Source of the DNA: a virus
Taxonomy: Duplodnaviria; Heunggongvirae; Uroviricota; Caudoviricetes
DNA: 13,854 bases
Virus record (IMG/VR): IMGVR_UViG_2585427748_000003
Direction: 5' to 3' (one strand)
The notes below the pieces were generated by a model, which was not told the origin of the DNA, did no database searches, and saw only the letters and a list, made by a program, of their open reading frames with translations. The translations under genes and the position numbers were made by a program. Each line of letters starts with the position of its first letter. The first letter of the stretch is position 1. Positions 1 to 13,690 of the stretch are shown here, in pieces.

Positions 1-747
1 GACTGGCTGAAGAAAGAGATACAGCGCGTATACGATGAAAATCACAAGGTATACGGTGTGCGTAAAGTCTGGCGTCAGTTGTTACGGGAAGGTATCAGAG
101 TGGCCAGATGCACTGTGGCACGTCTCATGGCGGTTATGGGACTTGCCGGTGTTCTCCGGGGTAAAAAGGTCCGTACGACCATCAGCCGGAAAGCCGTTGC
201 CGCAGGCGACCGCGTAAACCGTCAGTTCGTGGCAGAACGACCTGACCAGCTGTGGGTGGCTGATTTTACTTACGTCAGCACATGGCAGGGCTTCGTCTAT
301 GTGGCGTTCATCATTGATGTGTTTGCCGGATACATTGTGGGGTGGCGGGTCTCATCGTCCATGGAGACGACATTCGTGCTGGATGCACTGGAGCAGGCGT
401 TATGGGCCCGTCGACCGTCCGGCACGGTCCATCACAGTGATAAAGGTTCTCAGTATGTATCGCTGGCCTACACACAGCGGCTTAAGGAAGCCGGATTACT
501 GGCATCAACAGGAAGTACAGGCGACTCGTATGACAACGCGATGGCGGAGAGCATCAATGGTCTTTACAAAGCGGAGGTAATACACCGTAAGAGCTGGAAA
601 AACCGTGCAGAAGTGGAACTGGCCACACTCACGTGGGTGGACTGGTATAACAATCGACGATTGCTGGAAAGGCTGGGCCATACTCCTCCGGCAGAAGCAG
701 AAAAAGCTTATTATGCTTCCATCGGAAACGATGATCTGGCAGCCTGA
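1..747 (+). CDS. IS3-family transposase OrfB (DDE integrase core), 5'-partial at window edge
   Basis: Frame 1 translates from base 1 as DWLKKEIQRVYDENHKVYGVRKVWRQLLREG... (the track's ORF 58-747 is the same frame from an internal GTG). DDE-type signatures are present: WVADFTYV, HHSDKGSQY, ESINGLYKAE. Confidence 0.85.
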   Translation, partial: DWLKKEIQRVYDENHKVYGVRKVWRQLLREGIRVARCTVARLMAVMGLAGVLRGKKVRTTISRKAVAAGDRVNRQFVAERPDQLWVADFTYVSTWQGFVYVAFIIDVFAGYIVGWRVSSSMETTFVLDALEQALWARRPSGTVHHSDKGSQYVSLAYTQRLKEAGLLASTGSTGDSYDNAMAESINGLYKAEVIHRKSWKNRAEVELATLTWVDWYNNRRLLERLGHTPPAEAEKAYYASIGNDDLAA

Positions 748-789
748 GTTCACAGATAAAACACTCTCCAGGAAACCCGGGGCGGTTCA
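1..789 (+). mobile_element. 3' portion of an IS3-family insertion sequence (IS629-like), including the right terminal inverted repeat; continues left of the window
   Basis: Transposase OrfB frame is open from base 1 to TGA at 745-747 and is followed by about 42 bp ending ...CCAGGAAACCCGGGGCGGTTCA at 789. The reverse complement TGAACCGCCCCGGG... matches the terminal repeat I remember for IS629/IS3-group elements. IS629 assignment is from memory; the end position is +/- a few bp. Confidence 0.7.
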
Positions 790-1333
790 CTTCCGGTAGC
801 GCGTCCGCCACCTGATTGCGGACCGCCCACCAGGATAATTCAGCCAGCGATAATTCCCGTTCCTGCGAGCCATTCATTGCATGGCGTATGACGTCAATCA
901 TCCATGCAGACAGGTTTTGGTGAGCAAGTTGCCCGAGTGATTCGGAGGTCTGGTCGCGCAGCTGGTTGTCGCAGTGCCAGCACAACACCATTGCGCCGGT
1001 ACCATAACGGTGAATGACGGTTTCACTGTGGTGATAATCGCCGTGTGGCCACTGGCAGGATTTAACATGGCGCAGTAACCAGTCAGACAATGCGCCAGCG
1101 CCACCAGCAGCACGAATCACTCGTTCGTCGCTGAAAAATGGCAGTAATGATTTATCCTCCGCCAGCGGCTGGCGAACGGCAGGAACGACCCCGGACGACA
1201 GATTACGCATGCTTTTCGGTTCCGGCTCCACCAGTACCCGGGTATTGTGGAATACCGGCATGGATTCACGGCCCGGCTTAACGATCACCAGCCCGAGTTC
1301 CGGTACCAGAACAGGTCGAAGTAATACCCGCAC
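790..1333 (-). pseudogene. Hypothetical phage protein, 3' end interrupted by the IS insertion (native coding part only)
   Basis: Minus-strand ORF from GTG at 1333 with GGAGG just upstream; protein-like composition (..CQWPHGDYHHSETVIHRYG..LCWHCD..). The frame runs uninterrupted across the predicted IS end at 789 into IS sequence, so the native C-terminus is missing. Family not recognised. Confidence 0.45.
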
Positions 1334-3128: not shown

Positions 3129-3284
3129 TTACTCCTCAGGTTCGTAAGCTGTGAAGACAGCGACCTCCGTCTGGCCGGTTCGGATTCGTACCTCGCAGAG
3201 GTCTTTCCTCGTTACCAGTGCCGTCACAATGACGGTTAAACAGATGACGATCAGGGCGATTAGCATCGCCTTTTGCTGCTTCAT
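3129..3284 (-). CDS. hok: Hok/Gef-family type I toxin (small membrane peptide, 51 aa)
   Basis: Translation MKQQKAMLIALIVICLTVIVTALVTRKDLCEVRIRTGQTEVAVFTAYEPEE has the Hok/Gef hallmark (hydrophobic helix followed by conserved ..RKxLCEVxIRxGxxEVAxFxAYE..). AAGGAG SD 9 nt upstream. An in-frame upstream ATG at 3341 gives the track's 70-aa frame; whether that is a mok-like reading frame I cannot tell. Confidence 0.8.
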   Translation of the reverse strand: MKQQKAMLIALIVICLTVIVTALVTRKDLCEVRIRTGQTEVAVFTAYEPEE

Positions 3285-3329
3285 AGCCTGCTTCTCCTTG
3301 CCTTTCGGCACGTAAGAGGCTAACCTACG

Positions 3330-3400
3330 TGTGTAGAGCATAGATATGGCCTCAGATTAATGTTAAGCGTCTTGCCGGACGCGTAATGTTAACTGGGGCT
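3330..3400 (+). ncRNA. sok: Predicted Sok-like antisense RNA opposite the hok leader/upstream start region (approximate)
   Basis: By analogy with hok/sok loci only. Candidate plus-strand promoter TTGCCT (3298-3303), 17-bp spacer, TAACCT (3321-3326). No clear terminator found; boundaries are guesses. Confidence 0.2.
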
Positions 3401-3575
3401 TTTCTCTATCTGCCTTTTGGTGTTCATGCCTGAGACAGATAGCCTCAAGCACCCGCTGCAATTCTACTTAACTCTCCTTTTCCCGCAAACCGTTTTTATC
3501 CCCAGCGGCAAATCGAATACACCACCAGCGCCACCGCCATCGCAATTCCTACCGTTGTTAATGCTTCAGGCCAGG

Positions 3576-5391: not shown

Positions 5392-6354
5392 TTACCCCCT
5401 GAAGCCCGGCGGAATTTCAGTGTCCGGTTCAGAAATGTGATTCACGCAACGCTGCGCAGGCGAACGCCCCAGGCGGATAACCAGTTCATCCCATTTTTCC
5501 CGGAGTTTTGCCGGACTCATGATGTTTTTTACCCAGAACGAATCCCGCTGGAGACGCCCAAACATTTCACAAATTTGTCTGTGAGTTCTGCCATCCAGCA
5601 TCCGCATTGTGCGAACGTCATTGGCCCATGCTGTCCAGTTGGGTTCTTTCGGTCTAGTGATCTCGCCATCATCGCTGGCCGCCTGCTCGTAAAGACTCAC
5701 GATTCGTCCCCAGATCCACTGTGCGCACACCAAATCTTCCTGACTTCCCCACTGGCGTTTTTTCGCACTGAACACAACCGCGTCAGGGTGTCGGGTTAAA
5801 AAATCCTGTTCAGCCGTCTGCGGGTCCGGTTGCGAAGCGTCCGGACAAGAAGATCTTTTATCTGACGGATCAGGTTTTAATACTGACGGATCGGGGTTAA
5901 TCATCGCCCCCCTAATCGGCAGTTTTTTATCAACAGTTGATCCATCAAAATTTGACGGGTCAACCGTTGAGGGGTCAATATTTGACGGGTCAACTGTTAA
6001 CGGGTCATTTTTTGCCGGGCTAATTTTTCTTTTCGGTTTATATGACTCACGCGCCGCCGCCGCAGCTGCTTCGAGTTTTTCCACATTAAGCCGATAGATA
6101 TTGCTTACATTACGCCCACCGACCTTACGCTCTTCCTTCGTCAGCCAGCCCTCTTTCGCCAGTTCTGCAATAGCCGATTTCACTGTGGATTCACTTCTTG
6201 CACCGATCTGACGCCGGATAGTTTCAATGGCAGGCCATGACACGCCCTCGTCATTGCTGTAGTCTGCAAGACGGGCCATAACCGCCACCCTGGATAAGAT
6301 CATGCCGGTGAAGGCGCACCCTTCCCAGACAAGACCATGAAGCTTGCTGCTCAT
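5392..6354 (-). CDS. Putative replication initiation / replisome-organiser protein (N-terminal HTH domain, repeat linker, C-terminal domain)
   Basis: Position directly after the ydaS/ydaT-like genes in the rightward-equivalent operon; N-terminus resembles initiator-type HTH domains; linker made of pentapeptide repeats (TVDPS/NIDPS) encoded by iteron-like DNA repeats. Start placed at ATG 6354 (GGGGG SD) rather than the track's GTG at 6369. Function inferred from architecture and synteny. Confidence 0.55.
   Translation of the reverse strand: MSSKLHGLVWEGCAFTGMILSRVAVMARLADYSNDEGVSWPAIETIRRQIGARSESTVKSAIAELAKEGWLTKEERKVGGRNVSNIYRLNVEKLEAAAAAARESYKPKRKISPAKNDPLTVDPSNIDPSTVDPSNFDGSTVDKKLPIRGAMINPDPSVLKPDPSDKRSSCPDASQPDPQTAEQDFLTRHPDAVVFSAKKRQWGSQEDLVCAQWIWGRIVSLYEQAASDDGEITRPKEPNWTAWANDVRTMRMLDGRTHRQICEMFGRLQRDSFWVKNIMSPAKLREKWDELVIRLGRSPAQRCVNHISEPDTEIPPGFRG
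5953..6012. repeat. Four tandem 15-bp iteron-like repeats (TGACGGGTCAA-type, each an imperfect palindrome) inside the replication gene; two related copies at 5863-5872 and 5884-5893
   Basis: Units begin at 5953, 5968, 5983 and 5998 with exact 15-bp periodicity; an AT-rich stretch (about 5921-5952) lies immediately downstream in the gene's transcription direction. Confidence 0.55.
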
Positions 6355-6376: not shown

Positions 6377-6802
6377 TTAGTGCATCACCACAGCATTCCC
6401 TGCCGGGCCGCCGCGATTCATCTGGTCATACAAAACAACCGCTGACGCAACAAAATCATCGACATCCTTCCCCAGCCGATCCCTCCGTTCGACGATCTCA
6501 CGGTAATATTCAGAACTGTGGCTGCGCATACGGGCCACCAGCAAAGGCGGCATCGCCTTTTCGATCGCCGGTAACAGAGCCTGCATTTTTTCAACAGCAT
6601 CAGGGGTGTCTTTATCCAGCCAACGGAAAATTTTCTGGGTATTACGGGCCAGGGCTTCCGGATGGCTGTCGTCGTACAGTTCAGGGAACGTCATCCCCAG
6701 TTCGAAATAAGTCCGGGCTATTTCAGCTGCAGGAACTTTCTCACCATCAGGGTATGCCCAGGCATTCATCGCCATGCGGATGTGCTCATGTTTGATTTTC
6801 AT
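6377..6802 (-). CDS. ydaT: YdaT-like protein (Rac-type prophage, toxic partner of YdaS under RacR control)
   Basis: 141-aa ORF starting MKIKHEHI..; start overlaps the 3' end of the ydaS-like gene by 17 nt; synteny with racR/ydaS. Assignment from remembered similarity to K-12 Rac, not a search. Confidence 0.65.
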   Translation of the reverse strand: MKIKHEHIRMAMNAWAYPDGEKVPAAEIARTYFELGMTFPELYDDSHPEALARNTQKIFRWLDKDTPDAVEKMQALLPAIEKAMPPLLVARMRSHSSEYYREIVERRDRLGKDVDDFVASAVVLYDQMNRGGPAGNAVVMH

Positions 6803-9076: not shown

Positions 9077-9328
9077 CGCTGCAACGCCCTCTGTTATCAA
9101 TTTTCTGGTGACGTTTGGCGGTATCAGTTTTACTCCGTGACTGCTCTGCCGCCCTTTTTAAAGTGAATTTTGTGATGTGGTGAATGCGGCTGAGCGCACG
9201 CGGAACAGTTAAAACCAAAAACAGTGTTATGGGTGGATTCTCTGTATCCGGCGTTAATTGTTAACTGGTTAACGTCACCTGGAGGCACCAGGCACCGCAT
9301 CACAAAATTCATTGTTGAGGACGCGATA

Positions 9329-9517
9329 ATGGAAACGTTATTACCAAACGTTAATACGTCTGAAGGTTGTTTTGAAATTGGTGTCAATATCAGTAACCCT
9401 GTATTTACTGAAGATGCCATTAACAAGAGAAAACACGAACGGGAGCTATTAAATAAAATATGCATTCTTTCAATGCTGGCCCGTTTACGTCCGATACAAA
9501 AAGGATGCTGGCAATGA
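9329..9517 (+). CDS. Hypothetical small protein (62 aa)
   Basis: METLLPNVNTSEGCFEIGVNISNPVF..; GAGGA SD 8 nt upstream; its stop overlaps the next start (ATGA). Confidence 0.5.
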   Translation: METLLPNVNTSEGCFEIGVNISNPVFTEDAINKRKHERELLNKICILSMLARLRPIQKGCWQ

Positions 9518-9705
9518 ATACAGCATTTGCACTTGTTCTGACAGTTTTTCTTGTTTCCGGAGAGCCAGTTGATATTGCAGTCAGTGTTCACAGGACAATG
9601 CAGGAGTGTGTGACTGCAGCAACCGAACAGAAAATTCCCGGTAACTGTTACCCGGTCGATAAAGTTATTCACCAGGATAATAACGAAATCCCGGCAGGTC
9701 TTTAA
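9514..9705 (+). CDS. Small exported or membrane-anchored protein (63 aa)
   Basis: MNTAFALVLTVFLVSGEPVD.. has a signal-peptide-like hydrophobic N-terminus; AAGGA SD 8 nt upstream of ATG 9514. Confidence 0.55.
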   Translation: MNTAFALVLTVFLVSGEPVDIAVSVHRTMQECVTAATEQKIPGNCYPVDKVIHQDNNEIPAGL

Positions 9706-9797: not shown

Positions 9798-12212
9798 ATG
9801 AGTAAAGTCTTTATTTGCGCCGCCATTCCGGACGAACAGGCAATAAAGGAAGAAGGTGCCGTCGCTGTAGCCACTGCCATTGAAGCCGGTGATGAACGTC
9901 GCGCCCGCGCAAAATTTCACTGGCAATTCCTGGAACATTATCCGGCTGCTCAGGACTGCGCTTATAAATTTCTTGTCTGCGAGGATAAACCCGGTATACC
10001 CCGCCCTGCCCTCGATTCCTGGGATGCTGAATATATGCAGGAAAACCGCTGGGATGAGGAGTCTGCTTCCTTTGTCCCGGTTGAGACTGAATCCGATCCG
10101 ATGAACGTCACTTTTGACAAGCTGGCCCCTGAAGTACAGAACGCTGTCATGGTTAAGTTCGACACATGTGAAAACATCACCGTTGATATGGTTATTAGCG
10201 CACAGGAATTGTTGCAGGAAGACATGGCAACATTCGACGGACATATCGTTGAAGCGTTGATGAAAATGCCAGATGTTAACGCCATGTATCCGGAGCTTAA
10301 GCTGCATGCCATCGGGTGGGTTAAGCATAAATGTAAGCCTGGTGCCAAATGGCCCGAAATTCAGGCAGAGATGCGCATCTGGAAAAAACGTCGCGAAGGT
10401 GAACGCAAGGAAACCGGAAAATACACGTCTGTTGTTGATCTCGCCCGCGCCAGAGTCAATCAACAGCACACTGAAAATTCAACAGGAAAAATCAGCCTGG
10501 TCATTGCTGCCATTCATCGCGAATACAAGCAGACATGGAAAACACTGGATGACGAACTGGCCTACGCTCTCTGGCCTGGTGATGTGGATGCCGGAAACAT
10601 TGACGGCAGCATCCATCGCTGGGCAAAAAATGAAGTTATCGACAACGACCGCGAAGACTGGAAGCGTATCTCGGCATCAATGCGCAAACAGCCTGATGCC
10701 CTTCGCTACGACCGCCAGACTATTTTTGGCCTTGTCCGTGAACGTCCGATCGACATTCACAAAGACCCTGTGGCACTGAACAAATACATTACTGAATACC
10801 TGACTACAAAGGGCGTGTTTGAAGATGAAGGAAGAAATCAGAGCGCAACTGATACTCTCTCGTCGCCAGTACCAGAAACTGATGCAGTGGAAACGGCAAT
10901 TCCGGACAACGAAAAAACCGAATGCAAAGTGGAAGTCGAACCATCTGTAGAGCGTGAGGGGCCGTTCTACTTCCTCTTCACCGACAAGGATGGCGAAAAA
11001 TACGGTCGCGCAAACAAACTTTCTGGTCTGGATAAGGCACTGGCTGCCGGGGCTACTGAAATCACGAAAGAAGAATATTTCGCCCACAAAAACGGTACAT
11101 ACTCAGGTTCACAACAAAATACTGGTGCATCTGACACGACCGCACAACCAGGGCCGGTAAAAGTTACCGCTGACGAAGTAAACAAAATTATGCAGGCAGC
11201 CAATATCAGCCAGCCTGACGCCGATAAGTTGCTTGCTGCCTCTCGCGGAGAATTTGTTGCAGGGATTAGCGACCCGAATGATCCGAAATGGGTTAAGGGG
11301 ATCCAGACCCGCGATTCTGTAAACCAGAACCAGCATGAATCGGAACGGAACTACCAAAAAGCGGAACAAAACAGCCCAAATGCGTTACAAAACGAGCCAG
11401 AAACGAAACAGCCTGAACCAGTGGCGCAACAGGAAGTGGAAAAAGTCTGCACCGCCTGCGGTCAGACCGGCGGCGGCAATTGCCCTGATTGTGGCGCGGT
11501 GATGGGCGACGCAACATACCAGGAAACATTCGATGAAGAGTATCAGGTTGAAGTTCAGGAAGATGATCCGGAGGAAATGGAAGGCGCTGAACATCCACAC
11601 AAGGAGAACACTGGCGGCAATCAGCATCACGATAGCGATAATGAAACTGGCGAGACGGCAAATCACTCAATTAAGGTGAACAGTCATCACGTAATCACAT
11701 CCACCAGCAGGACGTGTGACCATCTAATGATAGACCTTGAAACCATGGGAAAAAATCCTGATGCCCCGATCATCTCAATAGGTGCAATATTTTTCGATCC
11801 GCAAACCGGAGATATGGGACCGGAATTTAGTAAGACTATCGATCTGGAAACTGCTGGCGGAGTCATTGATCGGGACACCATTAAATGGTGGCTTAAGCAA
11901 TCACGCGAAGCGCAATCTGCCATTATGACCGATGAAATCCCGTTAGATGATGCACTGTTACAATTGCGGGAATTTATCGACGAAAACTCCGGTGAATTTT
12001 TTGTTCAGGTCTGGGGAAATGGAGCCAACTTCGACAACACGATTTTGCGCCGTTCATACGAACGGCAGGGGATCCCCTGCCCGTGGCGTTACTACAACGA
12101 TCGCGATGTACGCACAATCGTTGAGCTGGGGAAAGCCATAGACTTCGATGCCAGAACGGCTATTCCATTCGAAGGTGAGCGCCATAATGCACTTGATGAC
12201 GCCCGTTACTAG
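9798..12212 (+). CDS. RecE/exodeoxyribonuclease VIII-like protein with a C-terminal DnaQ-like DEDDh 3'-5' exonuclease domain (about residues 644-804); ends at an in-frame TAG
   Basis: 804-aa ORF, GAGG SD 9 nt upstream, placed immediately upstream of xis-int as recE/exo is in lambdoid prophages. C-terminal motifs LMIDLETMG (Exo I), VWGNGANFDNT (Exo II), HNALDDARY (Exo III); Cys4 zinc-ribbon-like CTACGQTGGGNCPDCG in the linker. The RecE-like assignment of the N-terminal/linker region is from memory. Confidence 0.8.
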   Translation: MSKVFICAAIPDEQAIKEEGAVAVATAIEAGDERRARAKFHWQFLEHYPAAQDCAYKFLVCEDKPGIPRPALDSWDAEYMQENRWDEESASFVPVETESDPMNVTFDKLAPEVQNAVMVKFDTCENITVDMVISAQELLQEDMATFDGHIVEALMKMPDVNAMYPELKLHAIGWVKHKCKPGAKWPEIQAEMRIWKKRREGERKETGKYTSVVDLARARVNQQHTENSTGKISLVIAAIHREYKQTWKTLDDELAYALWPGDVDAGNIDGSIHRWAKNEVIDNDREDWKRISASMRKQPDALRYDRQTIFGLVRERPIDIHKDPVALNKYITEYLTTKGVFEDEGRNQSATDTLSSPVPETDAVETAIPDNEKTECKVEVEPSVEREGPFYFLFTDKDGEKYGRANKLSGLDKALAAGATEITKEEYFAHKNGTYSGSQQNTGASDTTAQPGPVKVTADEVNKIMQAANISQPDADKLLAASRGEFVAGISDPNDPKWVKGIQTRDSVNQNQHESERNYQKAEQNSPNALQNEPETKQPEPVAQQEVEKVCTACGQTGGGNCPDCGAVMGDATYQETFDEEYQVEVQEDDPEEMEGAEHPHKENTGGNQHHDSDNETGETANHSIKVNSHHVITSTSRTCDHLMIDLETMGKNPDAPIISIGAIFFDPQTGDMGPEFSKTIDLETAGGVIDRDTIKWWLKQSREAQSAIMTDEIPLDDALLQLREFIDENSGEFFVQVWGNGANFDNTILRRSYERQGIPCPWRYYNDRDVRTIVELGKAIDFDARTAIPFEGERHNALDDARY

Positions 12213-12333
12213 GCAAAATACGTTTCAGTTATCTGGCAAAAACTGATCCCGAGTCAGGCTGATTTTTAATGTTCAACCCCGGTCGTTGCCCACCAGCTAT
12301 AGTGGCGGCGACCATGATTAGCGAACGACGCCC

Positions 12334-12582
12334 ATGGCAAGACTTATTCTGCTCACTGAGTGGGCAAAAGAGGAATTCAGTGAACCGGTCCCTACTCCGG
12401 GCACGTTAAGTAAATACGCTAAAGCCGGAATGATATTTCCTCTCCCCAAAAAAGTTGGAAGACGCTGGCGAGTGGATCCGCAAGCTCGCTTTGTCGGAAT
12501 GGTAAACAAGCCGGAGGTGATCGCCACAGATCACCCTGCTTTGAAGAGGATACTGGAAGATGGCGCGCCCGCGAAAATATAA
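12334..12582 (+). CDS. xis: Excisionase-like protein (lambdoid prophage Xis family)
   Basis: 82-aa basic protein directly upstream of int, overlapping it by 23 bp, as is usual for xis-int pairs; no convincing SD. Confidence 0.6.
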   Translation: MARLILLTEWAKEEFSEPVPTPGTLSKYAKAGMIFPLPKKVGRRWRVDPQARFVGMVNKPEVIATDHPALKRILEDGAPAKI

Positions 12583-13690
12583 AACCGATGTTCCGGGATT
12601 ATCTCCGTATTTTGACAAAAGAAATAACAAAGTTTACTGGCGTTACAGGCATCCCATAACAGGCAAAAATCACGGTCTCGGCAGTATTGACCAGAAACTG
12701 GCGGAAACCATTGCAGCAGAAGCGAACAGCCGTCTTGCCAGACAACAAATGGAGCAAATGCTCAGTCTGCAGGAGAAAATTATTAATGATACCGGCGGTT
12801 CATCAACCGTTTCCATTTTTCTGAATAATTACAGAAAAATTCAACAGGAAAGATATGAAAACGGAGAAATCAAACTCAACACGCTGAAACAGAAAGCGGC
12901 CCCTCTCAGGGTTTTTGATGAACGTTTTGGCACCAGACCGTTAGATGCCATAACCGTAAAGGATGTGGTATCGGTGCTGGAAGAGTACAAGTCCAGAGGA
13001 CATAACAGAATGGGACAAATTTTCAGGAAGGTACTGATCGATGTTTTCCGGGAGGCTCAGCAAACGGGCGATGCCCCGCCAGGCTTTAATCCTGCAGAAT
13101 CGGCAAAAAAACCACAGGTGCGGATATCAAGACAGCGACTGACTTTTGATGAGTGGACGATGATTTATAACGCAGCGGAAAAGGATGGTTACTTTTTACA
13201 GCGCGGTATGCTGCTGGCACTGATGACAGGCCAGCGCCTTTCAGATATTTGCAAAATGCAATTTTCGGATATCCGGGATGGTTATCTTCATGTCGAACAG
13301 CAAAAAACAGGAACCCGGATTGCCATCCCTCTGGCTCTGCGTTGCGATAAATTAAATCTCACCCTGGATGATGTGGTGTCATCCTGTCGCGATTGCGTTC
13401 TTAGTCCGTGGCTATTGCACCATCATCACGCGAAAGGGACAGCTAAGCGCGGCGGGATGGTTAAGCCAGCAACGTTAACCGTTGCATTTAAAAAAGCGCG
13501 GGATTCTGTGGATTACAACTGGCGTGCTAATGGCACCCCACCCTCTTTCCATGAGCAGAGATCTTTATCAGAGCGATTGTTCAGAGAGCAGGGAATTGAT
13601 ACCCAAATTTTGCTGGGTCATTCGAATCAAAAAATGACCGATATTTACAACGATGCACGCGGCAAGGAGTGGAAAAAACTGGTCATTTGA
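12560..13690 (+). CDS. int: Lambda-family tyrosine integrase
   Basis: 376-aa ORF with lambda Int-like architecture and catalytic-region blocks (..LALMTGQRLSDICKMQFSDIRDGYLHVEQQKTGTRIAIP.., ..PPSFHEQRSLSERLF.., ..LLGHSNQKMTDIYNDARGKEWKKLVI); GAGGA SD. Confidence 0.9.
   Translation: MARPRKYKTDVPGLSPYFDKRNNKVYWRYRHPITGKNHGLGSIDQKLAETIAAEANSRLARQQMEQMLSLQEKIINDTGGSSTVSIFLNNYRKIQQERYENGEIKLNTLKQKAAPLRVFDERFGTRPLDAITVKDVVSVLEEYKSRGHNRMGQIFRKVLIDVFREAQQTGDAPPGFNPAESAKKPQVRISRQRLTFDEWTMIYNAAEKDGYFLQRGMLLALMTGQRLSDICKMQFSDIRDGYLHVEQQKTGTRIAIPLALRCDKLNLTLDDVVSSCRDCVLSPWLLHHHHAKGTAKRGGMVKPATLTVAFKKARDSVDYNWRANGTPPSFHEQRSLSERLFREQGIDTQILLGHSNQKMTDIYNDARGKEWKKLVI

Follow-up and report, generated by a model that had tools for sequence, protein, structure and literature searches.

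Lambdoid phages and prophages of Escherichia coli carry a gene for an 823-amino-acid protein called "exonuclease", which is often mislabelled as exodeoxyribonuclease VIII. Examples are TRITO_27 of phage Tritos, VUF53858.1 of phage Evi and WP_053883947.1 in E. coli strain SCPM-O-B-12142. These genes are situated after dicB/ydfD or kil and before xis/int. A copy with the same domain layout, and in the same genomic place, is present in a 13,854-nucleotide (nt) stretch of DNA listed as IMG/VR virus record IMGVR_UViG_2585427748_000003, which we refer to in its entirety as the window. The 823-amino-acid relatives have CAG at codon 805 and end at a TAA 57 nt further on, whereas the window copy stops at codon 805 with an amber codon. 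It is very probable that this copy, which belongs to the early region of a prophage, lost its function recently, in an instance of ordinary prophage gene decay.

The C-terminal part of the protein is a predicted 3'-5' exonuclease domain of the DEDDh class. DEDDh enzymes such as T4 DexA (8kel, the closest solved structure), RNase T and oligoribonuclease/REXO2 have their Exo I, II and III residues in common with the window copy, but the latter lacks most of the Exo III helix (profile positions 169-177). The architectures also differ, in that the DEDDh domain of the window ends a protein with an N-terminal region of ~640 residues, whereas enzymes of the DexA, RNase T and Orn types are small and stand alone.

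An amber codon in place of a conserved glutamine

The codons around the stop are GAG CGC CAT AAT GCA CTT GAT GAC GCC CGT TAC TAG GCA AAA TAC, and translation of positions 9798-12272 gives ...HNALDDARY*AKYVSVIWQKLIPSQADF*. A sequence-only reading of this DNA had proposed that an amber codon cuts the exonuclease open reading frame (ORF) right after the Exo III motif and that the frame then stays open as far as a TAA at 12267-12269. Both the coordinates and the reading agree with the sequence and its translation. An open frame of 18 codons is weak evidence on its own, since ~42% of random stretches of this length are calculated to be free of stops by chance, and the case therefore rests on homology.

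Coding sequences of 2,472 nt (823 codons for amino acids) that end at the TAA of the window are found in phages Tritos and Evi and in strain SCPM-O-B-12142. In DNA alignments, these three and the PPompW prophage of Stx2_14040 have TAC CAG GCA where the window has TAC TAG GCA, and the downstream 54 nt are nearly identical between the window and these orthologs. Full-length orthologs are 19 residues longer than the product encoded here (823 versus 804 amino acids), corresponding to the glutamine and 18 further residues, and the 18 codons orphaned in the window are still the same as the coding sequence of intact orthologs. The expectation that orthologs would have a sense codon such as CAG at this site and end at the downstream TAA, rather than terminate at the same TAG, is thereby borne out.

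Protein alignments of 19 and of 38 homologs, which take in stand-alone proteins of ~190 amino acids from Salmonella, Klebsiella, Citrobacter and Enterobacter, show that Gln805 is invariant down to ~56% identity. The eleven residues that follow it (AKYVSAIWQKL) are nearly invariant. The mean majority fraction is 0.94 over residues 805-816, versus 0.75 in the remainder of the domain, and this segment ranks sixth for conservation among 170 segments of twelve residues. The features of the gene, together with two RNA genes elsewhere in the window, are collected in Table 1.

Table 1. Positions of the truncated exonuclease gene, its diagnostic sites and two structured RNAs in the window.
Feature	Position	Strand	Basis or remark
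Truncated exonuclease gene	9798..12212	+	804 codons (ORF list, translation); RefSeq "exonuclease" WP_001575619.1 comes from identical DNA
Rv2179c-like (PF16473) DEDDh 3'-5' exonuclease domain, footprint in the read-through translation (amino acids 642-813)	11721..12236	+	Pfam profile
Exo I, Asp646-x-Glu648 (MIDLET)	11733..11741	+	Asp invariant, Glu at least 90% conserved in alignment
Exo II, Asp746 (NGANFDN)	12033..12035	+	Invariant alignment column (D119)
Exo III, His796-x4-Asp801, start of the last helix	12183..12200	+	His and Asp invariant
CTAGG, destroyed Dcm site (ancestrally CCAGG); 12210 is the inner cytosine, now T	12209..12213	+	Orthologs TTACCAGGCA; sister strain
Premature amber TAG in place of Gln805 (CAG)	12210..12212	+	Sequence, translation, orthologs, sister strain
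Orphaned 18 codons AKYVSVIWQKLIPSQADF: rest of the last helix (amino acids 806-816) and a short variable tail, no longer translated	12213..12266	+	
Ancestral stop TAA of the full-length 823-amino-acid gene	12267..12269	+	End of the coding sequence in Tritos, Evi and SCPM-O-B-12142
sok	3279-3454	-	Rfam, 117 bits; the hokD/sok toxin-antitoxin pair spans 3129-3454 and is intact
DicF small RNA	9103-9154	+	Rfam, 76.7 bits; intact, upstream of dicB

Origin of the mutation at a Dcm site

Within the 2,472-nt gene, the only difference between the window and SCPM-O-B-12142 is at 12210 (T versus C). The comparison with orthologs and this sister strain shows that the stop originated by a C-to-T change at 12210, and the sequences make it almost certain that TAG arose as a recent nonsense mutation of CAG.

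The context of the change is well known from lacI, whose spontaneous amber hotspots result from conversion of the second C of CCAGG to T (Coulondre and Miller 1978, reviewed in PMC12606429). The T:G mismatch of CTWGG/CCWGG is a substrate of Vsr very-short-patch repair (PMC2715241). The prophage allele exhibits the same change, from the second C of CCAGG to T and from CAG to TAG: orthologs and SCPM-O-B-12142 have the Dcm site CCAGG, and the window has CTAGG, in which the inner C, the base that Dcm targets, has become T. Unlike the lacI hotspots, which belong to a laboratory mutation spectrum, this is a single natural prophage allele in wild isolates, and its methylation is presumed from sequence. 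Single-base substitutions could create a stop codon in this gene in 309 ways, 74 of them transitions. Only 3 of these would be deaminations of 5-methylcytosine at a Dcm site, and the observed change is among the three. No other single-nucleotide polymorphism (SNP) between the close prophages lies in a Dcm site.

The sequence context and the established genetics of mutagenesis suggest that deamination of Dcm 5-methylcytosine was probably the cause of the C-to-T change. The ancestral gene would have encoded an 823-amino-acid protein with a C-terminal DEDDh (Rv2179c-like) 3'-5' exonuclease domain, with CAG within CCAGG as codon 805. At 12210, deamination of 5-methylcytosine to thymine would then have left a T:G mismatch, which very-short-patch repair missed, and CTAGG, with its TAG, would have become fixed. 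Translation now ends three residues past Asp801, which spares the catalytic residues but costs the last helix 12 of its 19 residues.

Age and spread of the allele

A comparison of 13,065 nt between the window and close E. coli genomes shows 2 SNPs for JKHS016, 3 for AST198 and 5 for SCPM-O-B-12142; the last set includes the T versus C at 12210. A 63-nt probe with TAG is matched exactly in 2 of 5,426 complete E. coli genomes, namely JKHS016 and AST198, and the corresponding CAG probe in 3,229 records. With a shorter probe of 34 nt, which covers a stretch that is invariant even in the 77%-identical allele of Evi, the TAG version again finds only JKHS016 and AST198 among the complete genomes. In the viral contigs of IMG/VR, the same 34-mer has at least 120 matches with CAG and none with TAG.

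The exact 804-amino-acid protein is encoded on at least 24 public contigs, in assemblies ranging from GCA_000352045 to GCA_043569085, and always beside xis, int and ompW. All nine TAG-carrying loci whose DNA was read (the two complete genomes and seven contigs) have the TAG, with zero or one synonymous SNP in the gene. The TAG allele is genuine; it arose once, very recently, and has become fixed in a single clone.

Expected effect on the nuclease domain

The 804-amino-acid product consists of YdfE_N and YdfE_C regions, a linker, and the C-terminal Rv2179c-like DEDDh domain, according to recorded Pfam families and a Pfam scan. The names YdfE_N and YdfE_C derive from the gene ydfE of the Qin prophage of K-12, which we take to be itself a remnant. 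The ~640 N-terminal residues are untouched by the amber codon, and all five catalytic residues (D646, E648, D746, H796 and D801) are upstream of it, the last by three residues. Compared with the PF16473 profile, the read-through translation scores 226.6 bits and matches positions 2-177 of 177, and the real ORF scores 209.9 bits (amino acids 642-804, profile positions 2-168). The curated cut-off is 27 bits, and by this score the 804-amino-acid ORF belongs to the family. The profile extends 9 positions (169-177) beyond the amber codon, and the ORF, which ends at residue 804, does not contain a complete DEDDh domain with a full Exo III helix.

To represent the intact domain, an AlphaFold2 model was made of P0002, a natural full-length ortholog domain 97% identical to that of the window, with the alignment of 38 sequences. 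The predicted template modelling score (pTM) of this model is 0.78. Foldseek relates it with probability 1.00 to T4 DexA (8kel, E = 1.7e-10), RNase T and Orn/REXO2, which are DEDDh (DnaQ-like) folds. A sequence search of solved structures matched only T4 DexA, in an alignment that ended before the C-terminal helix. In the model, the last helix has 19 residues (188-206, corresponding to amino acids 798-816 here), His796 is just ahead of it and Asp801 is in its first turn. The mean predicted local distance difference test (pLDDT) values per block are 94 for residues 191-200 and 83 for 201-210. The model thus supports the earlier guess that a helix continues after Exo III.

The amber codon keeps 7 of these 19 helix residues and removes 12, including the conserved V-x-x-I-W-x-x-L face; the lost residues are highly conserved and largely hydrophobic. 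AlphaFold2 is insensitive to destabilizing truncations. On the basis of the full-length model, the truncated nuclease domain is likely to be misfolded, to have its Exo III motif mispositioned, or to be much less active, on a protein whose N-terminal part is otherwise intact. It is reasonably probable that the nuclease function of the truncated protein is lost. We found no account, in the literature around Rv2179c, ydfE, PPompW and DexA, of what this prophage protein does or of C-terminally truncated family members.

The linker that joins the YdfE-type regions to the exonuclease domain is acidic and of low complexity, and contains a CxxC-x9-CxxC motif (CTACGQTGGGNCPDCG, window positions 11448-11495, amino acids 551-566). 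No Pfam family covers this motif, whose sequence suggests that it may be a small zinc ribbon.

Weighing the alternatives

As is typical of a prophage pseudogene, the window gene is disrupted relative to intact orthologs, has lost a conserved segment, and resides in an element with other lesions. Some observations nonetheless weigh against a plain loss of function. All catalytic residues are kept and the truncated ORF still scores far above the family cut-off, so that residual function is possible. The range of assembly accessions with the allele indicates that it has not been purged, which also fits a tolerated or useful truncation. As for the hotspot argument, a recurrent mutation would have strengthened it, but the change was seen in one lineage only, with no recurrence in the 5,426 complete genomes or in IMG/VR.

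One alternative is that the truncation is tolerated or even adaptive, such that the 804-amino-acid protein is useful through residual nuclease activity or through its nuclease-independent YdfE-type regions, and that the allele is maintained rather than drifting. The position of every DEDDh catalytic residue ahead of the stop, the intact state of the remaining 804-codon ORF, which is identical to the full-length sister allele, and the number of public contigs with the allele are compatible with this idea. However, the lost segment is among the most conserved of the domain and includes an invariant glutamine, and no second lineage with the truncation is present among the complete genomes or in IMG/VR. 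The TAG lineage is also almost without diversity in the gene, which fits recent clonal hitch-hiking and shows no sign of selection. We regard maintenance of a useful short protein as improbable.

Glutamine is often inserted when near-cognate tRNAs misread UAG in E. coli. The amber allele could consequently be a hypomorph, in which trace insertion of glutamine restores the wild-type 823-amino-acid protein beside a mostly crippled 804-amino-acid form, or the truncated form could keep a nuclease-independent role of its YdfE-type N-terminal part. We consider this very unlikely, but a hypomorph or nuclease-independent role, if true, would explain the persistence of the allele in a clone that has been sampled many times.

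Another proposal is that TAG is decoded, by a suppressor tRNA or by programmed or leaky read-through, to give the 823-amino-acid protein, possibly beside the short form. The downstream 18 codons are intact and in frame, and misreading as glutamine would restore the wild-type residue, making a trace of wild-type protein plausible. However, an intact tail is to be expected of so young a mutation, and every ortholog examined has a sense codon, which is CAG in all but the TAG lineage. A conserved stop, expected of programmed read-through, is absent: TAG is confined to two of the complete genomes and to none of the viral contigs, and glutamine is invariant in the 38 homologs. Because the stop is missing from every ortholog, a programmed signal is excluded, and only basal misreading remains.

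No tRNA gene was found in the window. For the TAG-carrying strain AST198, the glnX-glnV cluster was read and comprises two tRNA-Gln(CTG) and two tRNA-Gln(TTG) genes, so that it has no supE. The supE44 allele of glnV is found exactly in 155 genomes, and neither TAG genome is among the 60 matches listed, which appear to be mostly laboratory strains of K-12 type. No stimulatory RNA structure follows the stop: the fold of 12205-12300 has -14.6 kcal/mol with z = +0.91, and 168 of 200 shuffled sequences are at least as good. A scan of 11900-12700 for promoters and terminators found none. E. coli is not known to decode UAG as pyrrolysine. Decoding of this TAG is a highly improbable explanation.

The last alternative, a sequencing or assembly error, has only the prior that single-base errors occur in its favour and a negligible probability, because the exact 804-amino-acid product is on so many public contigs beside xis, int and ompW, and T at 12210 is shared by two independent complete genomes and seven contigs from the draft assemblies of different projects.

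The sequence-only reading had left two options: either CAG had recently mutated to the nonsense codon TAG in a prophage gene undergoing decay, or the codon was a site of suppression or read-through. The former is upheld by the CAG of orthologs, by a sister allele one base away and by the other lesions of the prophage; the latter finds no support, as the stop is not conserved, the window lacks a tRNA gene and no RNA structure is apparent.

Prophage context and decay

The window matches E. coli chromosomes and corresponds to the int-proximal segment of a lambdoid prophage that resembles Rac and Qin and is integrated at ompW. Its genes are arranged in the order racR, DicF, dicB, ydfD, exonuclease, xis, int. 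Among those annotated are racR, ydaT-type and helix-turn-helix (HTH) genes, hokD, dicB, a DUF1482 gene (ydfD), the "exonuclease", an excisionase and an integrase. The prophage carries a dicBF early operon of the Qin/Rac type. The corresponding dicB operon of K-12 is under repression in lysogens. If such repression also holds for this prophage, the amber mutation would cost the host nothing, and would persist by clonal descent.

Several lesions accompany the amber codon in this prophage and its relatives. At positions 1-789 of the window, an IS3-family transposase fragment (Pfam rve, rve_3 and HTH_21; ORF 58-747, + strand) interrupts a DUF968 gene that would span 287-1333 (- strand) according to the closest genomes. 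This insertion is absent from the three closest complete genomes, and the window therefore derives from another copy of the prophage, in which decay is slightly more advanced. AST198 (locus L007) has a separate CAG-to-TAG mutation, by C-to-T at 9601 in ydfD (9514-9705), which RefSeq annotates as "internal stop". Its context, TGCAGG, is not a Dcm site, and it represents a second independent amber codon in the same prophage lineage. In one assembly (L009), IS1 is inserted in the 3' end of int.

The exonuclease gene itself is also damaged elsewhere. The Stx2_14040/PPompW copy (locus L002, 1203-3670) has a frameshift due to a 4-bp deletion, in the product P0048 an internal deletion joins the first ~63 residues directly to the nuclease domain, and P0049 is a variant product that extends beyond the normal stop. 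Loss of this gene seems to be frequent in resident prophages. In the other decayed copies it is hit by frameshift, deletion or insertion sequence, whereas the lesion here consists of one nonsense substitution close to the 3' end.

Two further features of the window are described here for completeness. Relative to the three closest genomes, which have C and A, respectively, the window is unique in having T at 5898 and C at 6471; these positions are in the HTH-domain and ydaT-type genes. Also, the ancestral TAA of the exonuclease gene overlaps an ATG (TAATG, 12267-12271), which opens a 46-codon ORF at 12269-12409 (+ strand) that runs into xis. The part of this ORF represented by TAATGTTCAAC is kept even in the 77%-identical Evi allele, and the sequences diverge after it; the ORF has no annotation. 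Translational coupling of this ORF to the exonuclease gene, if it exists, would be broken by the upstream amber codon.

Implications

RefSeq designates the 804-amino-acid product "exonuclease" without flagging a truncation, and it would be better treated as a probable pseudogene or a C-terminally truncated allele. The phenomenon is of an already known kind. The allele is a tidy natural example of the textbook amber hotspot at a Dcm 5-methylcytosine, few SNPs away from its intact ancestor. It reveals no new decoding mechanism, and adds to the picture of stepwise decay in lambdoid prophages integrated at ompW.

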